Shown: one piece after another, positions 36,492 through 42,088 of the stretch
How positions within the stretch are numbered: the stretch's first letter is position 1
Layout of the letters: every line of letters starts with the position of its first letter
Source of the DNA: a bacterium
GTDB lineage: Bacteria > JADJOY01
Length of the DNA stretch: 48,155 nt
Direction: 5' to 3'
Assembly (NCBI GenBank): GCA_046331705.1
Contig: JAXLQJ010000055.1
Location: forward strand, 1 to 48,155
The notes under the pieces: generated by a model
What the model saw: only the letters and a program-made list of their open reading frames with translations
Databases searched by the model: none
What the model was told of the DNA's origin: nothing
Translations under genes and position numbers: made by a program

Positions 36492-38963
36492 TCAGCGCGG
36501 CGCGGCGGGCACCTGGATCGGGGTCGGCGCGTCGCCGCGCTGGTGTTGCGCCCAAATCCGGCGGTACGCGTCCTCCAGGTGCCGGGCGAACCGCGCGAGA
36601 TCGAAGAGCGGTGTCTCGAGGAGCGCGTCGCCGAGCTTGGAGCGAACGCGCGCGAGCGCCGCACGATCGCACGCCAGGCCGACCGCGCGCTCGAGGTACT
36701 CGCCATCGCTCGCGCACACGGTCTCCGGCGTGCCGGCGACGCGGCACAGGCTCGCCCCCATGCGCGACAGATACGTGTTTCCCGGCTTGGTGACGACGGG
36801 CACGCCCGCGCGCAGCGCACCGATGGCCGTGGCGCCGGCGTTCCAGTGGAAGGTGTCCAGGAAGAGATCGGCGAGCGCGTAACGCGCCAGATACTCGGGC
36901 TCGGGAGCCAGGCCGGCGAACCGGATCCGTTCGGGGTCGACGCCCGCAGCGCGCGCCTCGCGACGGAGGTTCGTGCGCACCCCGCGCAGGCCGCGGTCGT
37001 AGAGCCAGAGCACGCTGTCCGGAACACGGTCGAGGATGCGCATCCAGAGCGCGAAGCACTCGGGACCGATCTTCACCGGATGGTTGAAGCAGCAATACAC
37101 GAAGGCCGCGCTGGGCAGCCCGACCGATTCGCGGGTGACCGGGCGCTCCGAGATCGCGAACGGCGAGCTCACCAGGAAGGCGTCCGGGAGGCGGACGACG
37201 GCCTCGTCGTAATGCCGCGCGAGCTCCTCCGGGAGCGCCACCTCGTCGGCGATCACGTACGGCATGAACGACGCACCCATCGTGTCGAGGTAGCCGAGCC
37301 AGTGGGCCTGCACGGGCGCCGGCCTGAGCGCGACGATCTCCGCACGCGTGTGCGACGAGTAGCCCCCCAGGTCCACGAGCACGTCGATCTCGTCGGCTTC
37401 GATTCGCCGGGCGGCCGCTTCCGGCGAGATCGCCGAGACGTCCACGAAGCGATCCATGCCGCGCTCGATCGCGCCGCGCGTCTCGTCTCGGACGTCCACC
37501 AGCGAGTAGCCGAAGACCTCGAGCTCGTCTCGATCGTGGTGACGGAAGAGCTCGCGGATCAGCCTTCCCACGACGTGGCCGCGGAAGTCGGGCGACAGGT
37601 AGCCCACCCGTAGACGCCCCCGCCGGTTTCGCCGCGCGACGCCACCGGGTGGCCGGCGCAGCTCGGCGACGCGCGTCTCGAGGTGCCCGCTCATGAGGCG
37701 CGCCGCTCGGCGATGAAGCTCCGGCGGTACCGCGAAGCCGTTCAGGTGGAACGGCGGCAGCGGCGACGCGCCGAGGGTCGCAGCGCCCAGGGTGTCGACG
37801 AGATCCGGCAGGGCGGCGACGTCCGCCTCGCGCCGGCCCCAATCGCACAGGTCGGCGCGGAGCCGCGTCAGCGCGAAGTGGATCGCCGTCAGCGAAGGGT
37901 CGAGCGCCAGAGCGTGCTCGAAGAGCGGCAGCGCGTCCTCGGGCTCGTCTTCCTGGCGAAGCTCGGCGAGCCCCAGGTGCGCGCGTGCGGAGCGGGGGTC
38001 GGCAGCGAGGGCGCGACGGTAGCACCGCTCGGCGTCGCTCACCCGGCGCTGCGCGTGGTGGAGGATCTGCCCCAGCGCGAGCAGCGCCGGCACGTGCCGC
38101 GGCGCGACGGCGAGGGCCTTGCGAAGCGAACCGATCGCCGCCGGGTGATCGGCGATCGTGTGCTGGCCGAGGGCCAGATCCATCCAGGCCTCGGCACTTC
38201 GAGGCGCCACCCGGGTGGCCTCCGTCAGGTAGCGCAGCGCCGCCTGGACGTGACCGTCGGCGAGCAGCAGCTTCCCCAGGGCGCCGAGCGCCAGCGTCAT
38301 GCCGGGCTTGCATCGCAGCGCCTCGGCATAGGCCGCCCGGGCGCTGGCGCGGTCGCCGCGTCGCTCGAAGAGAGCGCCGAGATTGTGGTGCGCCTCGGCG
38401 AGCCGCGGGTCGAGGTCGAGAACGCAGCGGAAGCAGCGCTCCGCTTCCTCGCCGTTGCCGACGATGGCGAGCACCTGCCCGAGGGCGTTCCATCCCGCGG
38501 CGTGCTGCGGATGGAGGCTCGTCGCGCGCCTCAGGTGCCCCTCGGCGCCGGCGAGATCCCCGCGCCGCTGGAAGAGCCGGCCCAGGTTGAAGTGGGCCGG
38601 CGCGAAATCGTCCGCGAGCCGCAGCGCGTCGCGAAACGAGCGCTCGGCGTCGTCGGCTCGTCCGGCCGCCAGCAAGAGCTTGCCGAGGGTGTTGTGAAAC
38701 GCGGGCTTCCTGGGATCGAGCGCGATCGCCCGCCGCACCAGCTCGATCCCCTGCGCGGGATCGCGAGCCGCCGCCAAGAGACGTCCGAGCATGTGCAGCG
38801 CGTCGCTGTGGGCCGGCGCGAGCTTCAGCGCTTCGCGATAGTGCCGAGCCGCCTCCTCGAGCCGGCCGGCGCGCTGGCACTGAAGGCCTCGCCCGTAGTG
38901 GGAAGCGGCGAGGTCGGGCTCGGTCATCGCGTGGGTCGCTGGCCGCGAGGCGGTGCGGCTCAC
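36492..38963 (-). CDS. TPR-containing GT41 (OGT/SPINDLY-like) protein glycosyltransferase
   Basis: About 9-10 TPRs, then LRVGYLSPDFRGHVVG, DEIDVLVDLGGYS, RPAPVQAHWLGY..TMG, FNHPVKI, WMRIL..VP.S.LWL, DLFLDTF, SRMGASL, PLFD. GTG start overlaps the upstream stop. Confidence 0.92.
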   Translation of the reverse strand: MSRTASRPATHAMTEPDLAASHYGRGLQCQRAGRLEEAARHYREALKLAPAHSDALHMLGRLLAAARDPAQGIELVRRAIALDPRKPAFHNTLGKLLLAAGRADDAERSFRDALRLADDFAPAHFNLGRLFQRRGDLAGAEGHLRRATSLHPQHAAGWNALGQVLAIVGNGEEAERCFRCVLDLDPRLAEAHHNLGALFERRGDRASARAAYAEALRCKPGMTLALGALGKLLLADGHVQAALRYLTEATRVAPRSAEAWMDLALGQHTIADHPAAIGSLRKALAVAPRHVPALLALGQILHHAQRRVSDAERCYRRALAADPRSARAHLGLAELRQEDEPEDALPLFEHALALDPSLTAIHFALTRLRADLCDWGRREADVAALPDLVDTLGAATLGASPLPPFHLNGFAVPPELHRRAARLMSGHLETRVAELRRPPGGVARRNRRGRLRVGYLSPDFRGHVVGRLIRELFRHHDRDELEVFGYSLVDVRDETRGAIERGMDRFVDVSAISPEAAARRIEADEIDVLVDLGGYSSHTRAEIVALRPAPVQAHWLGYLDTMGASFMPYVIADEVALPEELARHYDEAVVRLPDAFLVSSPFAISERPVTRESVGLPSAAFVYCCFNHPVKIGPECFALWMRILDRVPDSVLWLYDRGLRGVRTNLRREARAAGVDPERIRFAGLAPEPEYLARYALADLFLDTFHWNAGATAIGALRAGVPVVTKPGNTYLSRMGASLCRVAGTPETVCASDGEYLERAVGLACDRAALARVRSKLGDALLETPLFDLARFARHLEDAYRRIWAQHQRGDAPTPIQVPAAPR

Positions 38964-40105
38964 TCGCGGCGGCGGTCCGCGACCGTCGCCGCGCTCGGCG
39001 TGGCGTCCGCGTCGAGCCCCACGATTCGCTCCCGGCCCGAGCCATCCGCAGCCTCGATCGTGGCGAGGCGTTGGATCTCGTCGGTCTTGAAGCCCAGCGC
39101 TTGGGGGCGGCTCAAGCCCGCCAGGACCTGCACGTCGTAGAGCTCGATCACCACGCCGTGAAGCTCGAGCCAGTGGGCATGCGCGCCGGTGCGCAGGTCG
39201 ATCACCACCAGCCCGCAGCGCGCCTCGGTGTCCTTCGCGCGCAGCTTGTCGTCGAGCGCCAGCCCGCGGAAGTGCTTCTCGCGCCGCTGCTTCGAAAGCC
39301 CCACGATCGCGTAGTCACCGGCGAACGCGAGACCGCGGAGGTAGCCGGGGCAGAACGTGATGGGCTCGAACACGCCGCGGTCGCGGTTCACGTAGCCGAG
39401 CTCGCCGGTGCCCGAGCTCAGGACCCAGAGCCGTCCGTCGTGGACCCGTGGCGAGTGCGGCATCGAAAGGCCTTCGGCGACGATCTCGTTCGTCTTCACG
39501 TCGATCACCACACCGCCGTCCTGGCGCCGCTCCCGCCAGCCCTCGTACACGTCCGAACGACTCACGGCGGTCACGTAGCGCGGCTCGCCGTCCTCCATGG
39601 CGAGCCCGTTCAGGTGGCAGCGATCCTCGGCAGCCAGCGCCGATACGAAGGGCGGCTTCCAGATCGGCTTGAAGCCGTACCGGTCGCTGAGCGTGGCGAG
39701 GCAGCTCCACTGGGTGTTGACGAAGAGCACGCGCCCCTGGCGGTCGATCGCCACGTCGTGGGCGTCCACCGCGCCGGTCGTGTGCCCCACCTGCGGAACG
39801 AAGAGAGCGTCGTAGCCGCGGTAGCGCTCGCGCCCCTCGAGGACGTTCTCGAAGCGCCAGATCTGGTAGCGGGTGGCGAGGTGGAGGCGCTCGGCCGTCG
39901 CGGCGAGGCCCATGGCGCGATCGAAGTAGCGCTCGAAGACCGACAGACCCTTCGGCCCGACACCGATGAAGAAGATCCGGCAGGTCTGGCAGGTCGTGAA
40001 GGCCACGGAACAGCGTTGCGTCAGCAGCCACAACGGGAAGTCGCGGGAGCACGACACCTCGAGCGGCGTCGTCGTGGGCGACTCCGGTGATCGCGCGGCG
40101 CTCAT
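38960..40105 (-). CDS. TIGR03032 / DUF4915 family protein
   Basis: RAMGL, HTTG.VDAHD, FVNT..SCL, WKPPFVS.LAAEDRCHLNGLA, GLSMPHSPR, SGTG, PGYLRGL, VGLSK.R, ELYDV. Confidence 0.9.
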   Translation of the reverse strand: MSAARSPESPTTTPLEVSCSRDFPLWLLTQRCSVAFTTCQTCRIFFIGVGPKGLSVFERYFDRAMGLAATAERLHLATRYQIWRFENVLEGRERYRGYDALFVPQVGHTTGAVDAHDVAIDRQGRVLFVNTQWSCLATLSDRYGFKPIWKPPFVSALAAEDRCHLNGLAMEDGEPRYVTAVSRSDVYEGWRERRQDGGVVIDVKTNEIVAEGLSMPHSPRVHDGRLWVLSSGTGELGYVNRDRGVFEPITFCPGYLRGLAFAGDYAIVGLSKQRREKHFRGLALDDKLRAKDTEARCGLVVIDLRTGAHAHWLELHGVVIELYDVQVLAGLSRPQALGFKTDEIQRLATIEAADGSGRERIVGLDADATPSAATVADRRRE

Positions 40106-40240
40106 TCCCCTGGCCCTTCGGTCCAGTGTCGCACCCCCCATCGACGCGCGGCGACACGGACGCGCTCGCCCGGGGGCCGGGGTGCGATCCGGAGGCTGTC
40201 GCCGCCCGCCGGCGAGCACGCTGTCGCGTCACGTGTTGCG

Positions 40241-40271
40241 ATGCGTTCTGCAACGCGCTCGCATTCTGCGA
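40241..40271. promoter_or_regulatory. Two tandem dyads, candidate enhancer-binding protein sites
   Basis: ATGCG-TTC-TGCAA (40241-40253) and perfect TCGCA-TTC-TGCGA (40259-40271), 18 bp apart, about 120-150 bp upstream of the sigma54 -24 element. Confidence 0.5.
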
Positions 40272-40391
40272 CATCGGTCACCAACCCCGAGTCGGCCTCG
40301 AGGACGTGGGAGCCGCACCACGGAGTCGGTTTTCGCGCCTTTTCCGGTGGTTTGCGGGAAATCCGTGTTTCCGCGGGAGAGCTGCGTCCAT

Positions 40392-40407
40392 TGGCACGCC
40401 AATCGCT
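40392..40407 (+). promoter_or_regulatory. Sigma54 (-24/-12) promoter
   Basis: TGGCACG-CCAA-TCGCT with exact GG-N10-GC spacing (GG 40393-94, GC 40405-06), one mismatch to TGGCACGNNNNTTGCW, in an intergenic region. Confidence 0.72.
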
Positions 40408-40417
40408 AAGGCAGATC

Positions 40418-40595
40418 GGTGCGTGCTCCCCAAGGCCCCGTCACTTACCTGGGGAAAAATTCAACAAACAAACGGTTTCGCGAAGGGGGGCCTTGGGTTT
40501 GCGGGTGGTGTCTTGGGGGGCCGCCCTTCTTTCCCTGCCGAGTGGAAGTCCCAGAAGCACGAAGGCGAGTGGCTGAGCCACTCGCCTTTCGTGTC
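40418..40595 (+). ncRNA. Candidate sigma54-dependent small RNA (about 115 or 175 nt)
   Basis: 11-bp stem CCCAAGGCCCC (40429-39)/GGGGCCTTGGG (40487-97) enclosing an A/C-rich loop; hairpin plus TTCTTT ending about 40532; strong hairpin 40558-40593; no credible ORF. Confidence 0.5.
40558..40595 (+). terminator. Strong terminator-like hairpin
   Basis: AAGGCGAGTGGC-TGA-GCCACTCGCCTT perfect 12-bp stem (40562-40588), extendable with CACG/CGTG. Confidence 0.6.
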
Positions 40596-40857
40596 TCCGC
40601 TCGTCGATCCCACCGCGCTTCGGCCGCGCGTCTCCCCGCGGGGGAACGCCACGGACGCGTCTTGGATCTCGAGCGCCGCGGGCGCGCGACCCGGTGAGGG
40701 TGCTGCGTGCGAGGGCACCGGCTCGCGGAGCCCCTGGGCACTCCGGGGAGGCTGGGATGGGCCGACACCCGAGGCGCGCGCCCCAAACGGGCGAGCAGAC
40801 GTGTAGCAAACCCTGGGAGCCCGCTTCGCGGTGCGCTTCGTGCCGCCCATCGGGCTC

Positions 40858-41560
40858 ATGGTTCCGTCTCGTCGACCGCTGGATCCGATTGCGCCGGACG
40901 TGGGCGAGGCCGGCGACGCGAACGCCGCCTTGGCCGCGCACGTGCCCCGCGACGCCGAGTTCGAGGTCGTGGTGGCGGGCTCGTTGCGGGCGGCAAGGCG
41001 AGCCCGGGCGGACGGCAAGCTCGCGGTCGTCATCACGGACATCGGGTTGCCCGACGGCAGTGGCGTGGAGCTGGTGCGGGATCTGCGCGGGGGAGAGATC
41101 CGAGCTCCCGGTGGTGATCACGACGGGCGCGCCGTCGATGGACTCGGCGACGGCGGAGATTCGCTGGCGCGTCAGCGAGTACCTGGCGCGGCCGTTCATG
41201 CCGGCGGAGCTGGCACGCGTCGTGCGGGCCGCGGCGAATGCTGGCCGGCTCGCCCGGGCGCGCGACAAGCTTCTCGCGGCGCGCTTCGGCGGCAGCGAGC
41301 TGACGGCGCGCCTCGCAGCGACGGAGAGAGGGTTCGCGCGCGCGATGCCTCGCAGCCAGAGGTCGTATGCGCCGATCGTGCGCGCCGCCGACGGCGCCGT
41401 CTTCGGATTCGAAGTGCTGCTCGGGTGCGACGAGCCGACGCTGGCTCCTCGCGCCGGAGGCGCTCGAATTCGCTGGCCTGGCACGCACCGGAAGCTCGCT
41501 CCTCGCGACTTCCAGCGCGGTTCGGGACGCGTCGACGACGCCGCGCGGAGCATCGGTTAG
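40858..41560 (+). pseudogene. Degenerate response regulator receiver + truncated EAL domain gene
   Basis: VVITDIGLPDGSGVELV (receiver Asp) in one frame; LPVVITTG..SEYLARPF and YAPIVRAADGAVFGFEVLL (start of EAL) in another; shift near the G-run at about 41089-41100; most of the EAL domain is missing. Confidence 0.6.
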
Positions 41561-41596: not shown

Positions 41597-42088
41597 ATGA
41601 TCTCCATCGACAAGAATCGCGTCCTGCAGGCCTTGCGGGCCCGGGTCGCCGACACGCTCGGCGACCTGGTTGCCTCCCAGCGAGCGGCCCAGGACGGCGC
41701 GACTCACGAGGAGACCCGCGCCGAGGATCCCAAGGACATGCGTTCCACCGAGGCGAGCTACCTCGCCCGCGGGCTCGCGCAGCGCGTCGAGGAGCTGCGG
41801 GGCGAAGCCGCGCGGCTCTCCGCGCTGTCGCTCAAGGCGTTCGGCCCCGAGGATCCCGTGGCGCTCTCGGCGTTGGCCGGGCTCGAGGATGCCGAGGGAC
41901 GGAAGTCGGTGATCTTCGTCGTCGCGGCCGGCGGCGGCGAGCCGCTCGAGGTCGACGGCGTCTCGATCCGTCCCGTGACTCCGGCGTCGCCGCTCGGCCG
42001 CGCGGTGACGGGATCGCACGCGGGTGAATCGATCGAGGTCGAGCTGCCGGGCGGCAAGCGAGAGATGACGATTCTCTGGGTGGCGTGA
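41597..42088 (+). CDS. GreA/GreB family transcription elongation factor-like protein
   Basis: N-terminal coiled coil ATHEETRAED..D.R..EASYLARG; C-terminal VTPASPLGRA..G...GE. Confidence 0.8.
   Translation: MISIDKNRVLQALRARVADTLGDLVASQRAAQDGATHEETRAEDPKDMRSTEASYLARGLAQRVEELRGEAARLSALSLKAFGPEDPVALSALAGLEDAEGRKSVIFVVAAGGGEPLEVDGVSIRPVTPASPLGRAVTGSHAGESIEVELPGGKREMTILWVA

Follow-up and report, generated by a model that had tools for sequence, protein, structure and literature searches.

Known sigma54-dependent small RNAs (sRNAs), among them Qrr, CrcZ, GlmY and Pxr, act at decision points, among them quorum sensing, the choice of carbon source, synthesis of the cell envelope, and development. NtrC-family activators bind enhancer sites and act by DNA looping. 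The LuxO site of the Vibrio Qrr1-5 genes reads TTGCA-N3-TGCAA, and Qrr requires Hfq. Here, we analyze a candidate sRNA gene of this kind on the plus strand of a 48,155-nt bacterial contig (the window; JAXLQJ010000055.1, from assembly GCA_046331705.1, our genome G000), where the whole unit occupies positions 40223-40593. CrcZ is several times longer than this RNA. Published work describes the three other relevant systems as follows. CrcZ of Pseudomonas is CbrB/sigma54-dependent and works by titrating Hfq/Crc (PMC8657755). Pxr of Myxococcus and Cystobacter has a sigma54 promoter, forms tandem paralogues with their own promoters in some species, belongs to a host without Hfq, and always lies between nla19, a gene for a bacterial enhancer-binding protein (bEBP), and a NADH dehydrogenase gene (PMC5568312). 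In Desulfovibrio vulgaris, the response regulator DVU0679 has the Dv_sRNA2 promoter as its main target, and the sRNA is directly downstream of the regulator gene (PMC3333781).

An earlier reading of the DNA letters alone (the sequence-only reading) had proposed an undescribed sigma54-dependent sRNA at this locus, and our analysis bears the proposal out. Scanning the whole window against Rfam 15, families such as Qrr, CrcZ, GlmY, 6S and the riboswitches included, we obtained no match at the gathering thresholds; with E <= 10 around the locus, only three chance-level matches appeared (14.5-15.9 bits against thresholds of 45-71). We call the RNA undescribed because these scans were empty, the literature searched being that on known sigma54-dependent sRNAs. 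A second copy, 83% identical, is present in G000 at C35:61075-61221. A DNA search of 41 genomes recovered the element in G000 and in all five other genomes of its family (G001-G005), whereas the 35 genomes that belong to other families lacked it. In the genome collection searched, the order, class and phylum of G000 each comprise only these six species-level genomes. Together they hold 11 full-length copies, one to three per genome, and one decayed tandem unit. We built a covariance model, R1, from the 11 copies (effective sequence number 1.07). R1 scores these copies at 171.8-205.3 bits; the next match, at 47 bits, is the decayed unit, and the matches below it are terminator-like hairpins. 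The long form (seven copies) has AAAAAUUCAACAAACA and the short form (four copies) has AAAAYAAACAAYA, and both forms occur in both genera. On contig C4 of G003 (L006 1533-2362; also G003:C4:166900-167021), two complete units stand in tandem with some 440 nt between them, and both have an enhancer and a promoter of their own. The decayed third unit, which follows them, retains a remnant of the rod described below and an intact second hairpin, T2.

Searches beyond the phylum returned no real copy. A 19-nt word searched in 185,579 species genomes gave 12 stretches, eight from the phylum and four chance occurrences without a model match, and an independent gapped pattern gave 55, of which eight were known and none of the 47 new ones was real. 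Running R1 on the 151 genomes of the phylum to which a Polyangiaceae metagenome-assembled genome (MAG) belongs, we found nothing credible; the top match, at 29.5 bits and the sole alignment inspected in that set, was a terminator hairpin alone. The 19-nt word also occurs in 11 stretches of metagenome contigs, five of them with full-length model matches; the bit scores of these five are identical to those of known copies, so they add no diversity. Judged from the comparison of these sequences, the element is very probably a small regulatory RNA gene, previously uncatalogued, in all six known species of a small uncultured lineage. That it represents a real sigma54-dependent non-coding RNA gene family we hold with high confidence.

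The conserved regulatory architecture, as it emerges from the alignments, is the strongest argument for sigma54 dependence. The promoter that the sequence-only reading had placed just before the RNA is kept in 11/11 copies. In the window, TGGCACGCCAATCGCT is the sole match to TGGCAY-N5-TYGCW. By itself, without the other copies, this match is weak evidence: 0.14 matches are expected per window, and 13 of 100 shuffles contained at least one. Across the alignment, TTGGCAY-N5-TCGC is identical in all 11 copies, and the only departure from the TGGCAC-N5-TTGCW consensus, TCGC for TTGC, is common to all of them. No sigma70-like site was found in 39800-41200. Canonical sigma54 spacing places the start about 12 nt downstream of the -12 C. 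Conservation of the RNA begins at 40421, three bases past the start predicted in this way, and the five preceding columns have an identity of 0.40.

Aligning the 330 nt upstream of all 11 copies, we find a conserved block of about 60 nt with a mean pairwise identity of 0.78, compared with 0.25 farther upstream and 0.44 in the downstream spacer. The consensus of its core in this alignment is TGTYGCGAYGCGTTCTGCAACGCnnTCGCATTCTGCGACA. The palindrome TCGCAwTCTGCGAC sits 132-137 nt upstream of TGGCA in every copy, within the range of about 80-200 bp expected of activator sites at sigma54 promoters. Thus, the distance between palindrome and promoter is kept while the intervening sequence is not, as expected of a looping enhancer-binding-protein site. 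The 8.2-Mb genome G000 contains 25 strict sigma54-like promoter matches, and only two of these have the palindrome upstream, both being sRNA loci. The bare palindrome occurs seven times in G000, near the expectation from base composition by our own estimate, and is therefore unusable alone for finding the activator. About 50-60 nt upstream of the -24 element, the alignment shows a conserved short box rich in T, which reads GATTTCC in most copies and CCTTTTCC at 40338-40345 of the window; this box between enhancer and promoter could be a bending/IHF-type site or a second regulator site.

The protein repertoire lends further support. G000 encodes RpoN (an open frame of 544 aa that matches PF04552 with 222 bits), whose closest relatives outside the phylum, at 48-54% identity, are in Desulfacinum and Polyangiaceae MAGs. 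It has 49 matches to PF00158, about 44 of them full-length AAA+ (bEBP) domains; its relatives have 18-43 matches, and the three among them with a completeness of 86% or more have 36-43. Hfq (PF17209) was found in none of the six genomes, whose completeness is 74-100%, one being at 100%. The combination of many sigma54 activators and no Hfq in G000 resembles the myxobacterial regulatory style.

We then consider the RNA itself. A 191-nt stretch folds to -88.9 kcal/mol, compared with -75.5 ± 4.75 kcal/mol for shuffles (z = -2.82; 0 of 200 as stable). Single-sequence folds of all 11 copies give a long rod, P1, in which 40421-40442 pairs with 40504-40524 and closes an apical domain. The sequence-only reading had described another helix, an 11-bp stem around an A-rich loop. 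This stem is present and perfect (CCCAAGGCCCC with GGGGCCTTGGG; 40429-40439 with 40487-40497), and the 47 nt between its arms include the A-rich GGGGAAAAATTCAACAAACAAAC. However, it is probably not the dominant fold in our models, as the longer and more stable 5'-3' helix shares its 5' strand. The pattern of substitutions differs between the helices. P1 is paired in 98.6% of alignment cells and has one compensatory pair in 20 (C-G to U-A, in two copies). Extending P1 in register, we find a position with G-C in four copies, C-G in three and U-G in three, one copy being unpaired. T2 is paired in 99.4% of cells, with compensatory changes at three of its 16 pairs. The 11-bp stem is 100% pairable, yet only one of its 11 pairs changes, on one side, and the other 10 are invariant. 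The covariation outside the 11-nt arm is explicable only by the rod, and we therefore take the rod as the main fold. A third pairing joins 40482-40492 with 40519-40529. All three alternative helices are fully conserved, and either a folding pathway or a switch may underlie this three-way complementarity.

Conservation along the transcript is a mosaic, with RNA segments at 0.95-0.98 and loops and spacers at 0.44-0.61 (Table 1). The most conserved part, the apical segment, is partly unpaired in ensemble folds; within it lie the 3' arm of the 11-bp stem (40487-40497) and a palindrome, TTCGCGAA. The A-rich stretch keeps its composition, with 2- and 3-nt indels among copies. Both hairpins that the sequence-only reading had called terminator-like are present. 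The first helix has its end at 40524-40529; after it comes CCTTCTTTCC, which is possibly a weak terminator tail of a ~115-nt form. The second, T2, is likely the 3' end of a ~180-nt form; TTTTT follows it in G001 and G002. The sole site that passes the terminator scan lies inside the RNA, at 40474-40492 (GGTTTC-GCGAAGG-GGGGCC followed by TTGGGTTTGC). It falls within the invariant apical segment, and the copy G003_C4b is without one G of the G-run. Possibly this site forms a small hairpin at the apex (P3), or it acts as an early stop.

Table 1. Features of the sRNA unit, with positions in the window and identities among the copies.
Feature	Position	Strand	Details
Upstream activating sequence, putative bEBP sites	40223-40281	+	palindrome TCGCATTCTGCGA at 40259-40271; GTTGC-N10-GCAAC
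Sigma54-type -24/-12 promoter	40392-40407	+	TGGCACGccaaTCGCT; GG at 40393-94, GC at 40405-06
Predicted transcription start	40418	+	12 nt past the -12 C, canonical sigma54 spacing
P1, 5' strand	40421-40442	+	GCGTGCTCCCCAAGGCCCCGTC; identity 0.96; includes the 11-nt arm 40429-40439
First loop			mean pairwise identity 0.61
A-rich, mostly single-stranded stretch	40455-40473	+	AAAAATTCAACAAACAAAC; identity 0.78; unpaired probability ~0.5-0.9 in 11 copies
Invariant apical segment	40471-40501	+	AACGGTTTCGCGAAGGGGGGCCTTGGGTTTG; identity 0.98 over 11 copies, highest of the RNA
P1, 3' strand	40504-40524	+	GGTGGTGTCTTGGGGGGCCGC; identity 0.95
C/U-rich single-stranded tail/linker	40525-40534	+	CCTTCTTTCC; identity 0.87; unpaired probability ~0.6-0.7
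Spacer between C/U tail and T2			mean pairwise identity 0.46
Second hairpin, T2	40558-40593	+	CACGAAGGCGAGTGG-CTGA-GCCACTCGCCTTTCGTG; identity 0.83; present in 11/11 copies

Comparing the family with the described systems, we find partial likeness to each. Like Qrr1-5 of Vibrio, it has several paralogues per genome, each with a sigma54 promoter and a shared activator site, a palindrome of the same 5-3-5 layout (TCGCA-N3-TGCGA in place of the LuxO sequence) and a highly conserved RNA core. Unlike Qrr, it has no Rfam match, no Hfq was found, the phylum is different, and no bEBP gene adjoins the copies among the matches listed; it also forms a long rod, in contrast to the four short stem-loops generally known for Qrr. 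The resemblance to Pxr extends to a sigma54 promoter with an enhancer site, tandem paralogues with their own promoters, a GC-rich host with many bEBPs and no Hfq, and a multi-stem RNA with possible long and short forms (PMC5568312). It differs from Pxr in its varied contexts, with no bEBP neighbour among the matches listed, and the position between nla19 and the NADH dehydrogenase gene does not occur. Pxr is set apart here by gene position. CrcZ/CrcY/CrcX share sigma54/bEBP-driven transcription, A-rich single-stranded motifs and the presence of paralogues (PMC8657755). The analogy with CrcZ drawn by the sequence-only reading nevertheless fails: with no Hfq found in the six genomes, a CrcZ/Qrr-type Hfq mechanism is unlikely. 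There is also only one A-rich stretch per RNA, unlike in CrcZ. A run resembling AAnAAnAA, as generally known from CrcZ, occurs only in the short-type copies here. Dv_sRNA2 resembles it, by description, as an sRNA whose promoter chiefly serves one dedicated response regulator, in the former Deltaproteobacteria, but it adjoins its regulator gene and the excerpt consulted describes no multi-copy family (PMC3333781). By these comparisons, the RNA is a member of none of the four, since there is no Rfam match, no Pxr synteny and no Hfq; in function they are its closest systems.

We propose that the unit has four parts, a bEBP site, a non-conserved spacer of ~133 bp, the sigma54 promoter and the RNA. 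Transcription would require RpoN and one dedicated NtrC-family activator among the ~44, presumably a single bEBP, which would bind the TCGCA-N3-TGCGA palindrome of every copy. The palindrome being common to all copies, the paralogues would be co-induced by one signal, as in LuxO/Qrr. The predicted transcript would be ~115 nt (to the C/U tail, ~40532) or ~180 nt (to T2, ~40593). It would exist mainly as the long 5'-3' rod P1, whose apical domain would leave the A-rich strand exposed and hold the 31-nt invariant segment, and the 5' strand of P1 could alternatively pair with the invariant segment as the 11-bp stem. The RNA would act in trans as an Hfq-independent riboregulator, contacting its partners, most likely mRNAs by base pairing, through the partly unpaired apical segment, which the A-rich strand would hold open. 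We regard this explanation as a whole, a stand-alone multi-copy sRNA gene for an Hfq-independent trans-acting riboregulator, as the best available and give it a probability of about 0.55. Its parts differ in strength. The use of the apical segment as the contact surface of such a riboregulator is weakly suggested, and action by base pairing rather than protein binding has, in our judgement, somewhat less than an even chance.

Several results weigh against this explanation. None of the PF00158 matches listed lies beside an sRNA copy, and none is on contigs C55 or C35. Neither hairpin of the window copy satisfies the T-run rule of the terminator scan, and canonical U-tracts are lacking. The power of the covariation analysis is low, with 11 related sequences and most helix positions invariant. 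The A-rich strand has no 10-nt Watson-Crick complement, and no 11-nt complement with G-U pairs allowed, elsewhere in the genome. As target windows we used 8,875 putative initiation regions from a crude caller based on open reading frames (ORFs) and GC at third codon positions (GC3), which gave 4,647 ORFs and possibly missed real starts. Duplex energies of three RNA segments against these windows could not be told apart from those of reversed-sequence controls. Two outliers, a GH114_assoc gene (C10:152641) and an arabinofuranosidase-like gene (C15:41377), were rejected, the complementary site being not conserved in the orthologues of either gene. Duplex folding of the whole RNA against the same windows was uninformative because of giant interior loops. 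Finally, the edges of metatranscriptome contigs disagree with the predicted start and ends, and one contig crosses the promoter.

Two side results belong to the target search. Watson-Crick complements of 12 nt to the first 135 nt of the RNA gave scattered matches; those inspected (C51, C9) were antisense to a gene or had no conserved site, and were dropped. At the start of the GH114_assoc gene (G000, minus strand) and its orthologues, GGGGGGAAY is conserved 2 nt before the ATG in five aligned genomes; it is Shine-Dalgarno-like and resembles the G6 runs inside the sRNA.

The metatranscriptomes comprised four runs, the contigs of which give neither starts, ends nor strand and so speak neither for nor against a discrete transcript. 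Low-depth contigs (2.5-3.3), possibly DNA carry-over, cover parts of the locus in three of the four runs (40205-40444, 40438-40535, 40467-40530 and 40492-40689), and run X6 has no contig there. A 113-nt contig (run X1, record 1) matches the core at 40467-40530 and has short-type-like sequence on both sides. A short-type copy or the copy of a relative may thus be represented in RNA library X1, at low depth and perhaps as DNA.

The best-surviving alternative keeps the same gene and the same regulation, but has the RNA bind or sequester a protein through GGUUUCGCGAAGGGGGGCC and/or the A-rich strand, in principle like GlmY/RapZ, CrcZ/Hfq or CsrB/CsrA. We consider it unlikely, though it deserves attention. 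The 31 apical nucleotides, palindrome included, are conserved (0.98) beyond structural need, and the A-rich strand keeps its composition and not its register, which fits a protein-binding or spacer role better than a fixed seed. The lack of target complementarity in the genome and the dosage provided by multi-copy genes, useful for titration, point in the same direction. Against this, none of the copies has a gene for a candidate partner linked to it, and the two obvious partners do not fit. We rejected an Hfq sponge, as no Hfq was found in the six genomes. CsrA is present in the genome; Csr/Rsm sponges carry many GGA motifs, yet the 11 copies have a single conserved GGA, the one in CUGGGGAAAA, and a CsrA sponge was rejected on this ground.

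Next in rank is a cis-acting reading, in which the element is a sigma54-driven leader or attenuator whose mutually exclusive pairings (40429-39 with 40487-97, 40425-39 with 40507-21, and 40482-92 with 40519-29) switch read-through into the downstream gene. The full conservation of the three alternative helices agrees with it. So do the two successive hairpins, which in the window, G005:C53 and G003:C4 are followed by an ORF on the same strand, and the one metatranscriptome contig, 40492-40689, that extends past T2 (low depth, may be DNA). The neighbouring genes speak otherwise. They differ among the copies examined: a DUF4915 gene in the window, a PKD-domain protein and an aminotransferase at the G003:C4 copies, a metallo-beta-lactamase at the G004 copy, and, for the two short-type copies tested, a MaoC dehydratase upstream and an opposite-strand gene downstream that encodes either a CitMHS transporter or an HD hydrolase. 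Two long-type copies have downstream ORFs unrelated to each other. The downstream gene is convergent in both short-type copies tested, and appears so in a third by ORF and GC3 only. The convergent genes in the two tested copies argue for a stand-alone RNA gene, and each tandem copy of G003:C4 has its own enhancer and promoter. The element is therefore not the plain leader of a downstream gene, in agreement with the sequence-only reading, and a leader role of any kind appears improbable to us.

Could the conservation reflect recent spread of a duplicated DNA module, a regulatory cassette or small repeat, with no functional RNA? Several copies per genome, tandem copies, one decayed copy and the non-syntenic places of the long-type copies would all suit such a module. 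However, the mosaic conservation tracks the RNA helices with compensatory changes, unlike that of uniform recent repeats, and there are no terminal inverted repeats or conserved ends past the enhancer and T2. Moreover, the short-type copy retains its MaoC neighbour in both genera and so predates their split. We judge this explanation very improbable. Least credible is an encoded small protein: a mechanical GTG ORF spans 40419-40697, but copies differ by 1-, 2- and 3-nt indels with the downstream nucleotides still conserved, the 1- and 2-nt ones shifting the frame, the only candidate position has no start codon in four of the 11, and GC by codon position is flat across 40200-40600, so that a conserved ORF is excluded, as the sequence-only reading had expected from the lack of coding bias. 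Even taken jointly, a non-functional repeat and a small ORF have only a slim chance.

A bolder version of the stand-alone sRNA explanation, which we regard as doubtful, makes the family the dedicated output of one sigma54 activator, a LuxO-Qrr-like node that would have arisen independently in an Hfq-less phylum with a built-in conformational switch. The mutually exclusive pairings (5' strand with apical segment, 5' with 3' strand, apical segment with 3' tail) would then choose between the short and long forms, and the same pairings would decide the exposure of the invariant G-rich apical segment. If true, this would be an sRNA with riboswitch-like gating and no chaperone.

By comparative genomics alone, the family defines a module comparable to the described ones, in which a multi-copy RNA is combined with a sigma54 promoter and an enhancer common to the copies. 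Its lineage counts only six species-level genomes, with ~40 bEBPs in each and Hfq undetected. The family is a ready candidate for a new RNA family model, and with it sRNA action independent of a chaperone could be tested in GC-rich bacteria. TCGCA-N3-TGCGA at 133 bp from the promoter offers a specific motif for fishing out the cognate activator. No concept is overturned, and function will be hard to establish without cultures.

The GC content of the window is 0.71 overall and falls to ~0.60-0.63 across 40200-40600. On its left, the sRNA gap is bordered by the minus-strand gene for DUF4915 (38960-40219; Pfam match with E = 1.2e-135), and no codon-position GC periodicity is seen from there to ~40831, where the first plus-strand coding signal begins. 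The sequence-only reading had described the sRNA as located divergently from the glycosylation operon. A minus-strand gene does adjoin the sRNA, but since the other copies sit elsewhere, the place beside DUF4915 is, by this comparison, incidental. The plus-strand coding signal at 40831-41560 is in frame 1 first and in frame 2 from ~41030-41050, and it starts with a receiver-like fragment, DIGLPDGSGVEL (PF00072, E = 1.4e-4, under cutoff). The pattern points to a response-regulator gene that is frameshifted or degenerate, or else to an error in the assembly. The next ORF, at 41597-42088, has a GreA/GreB C-terminal match.

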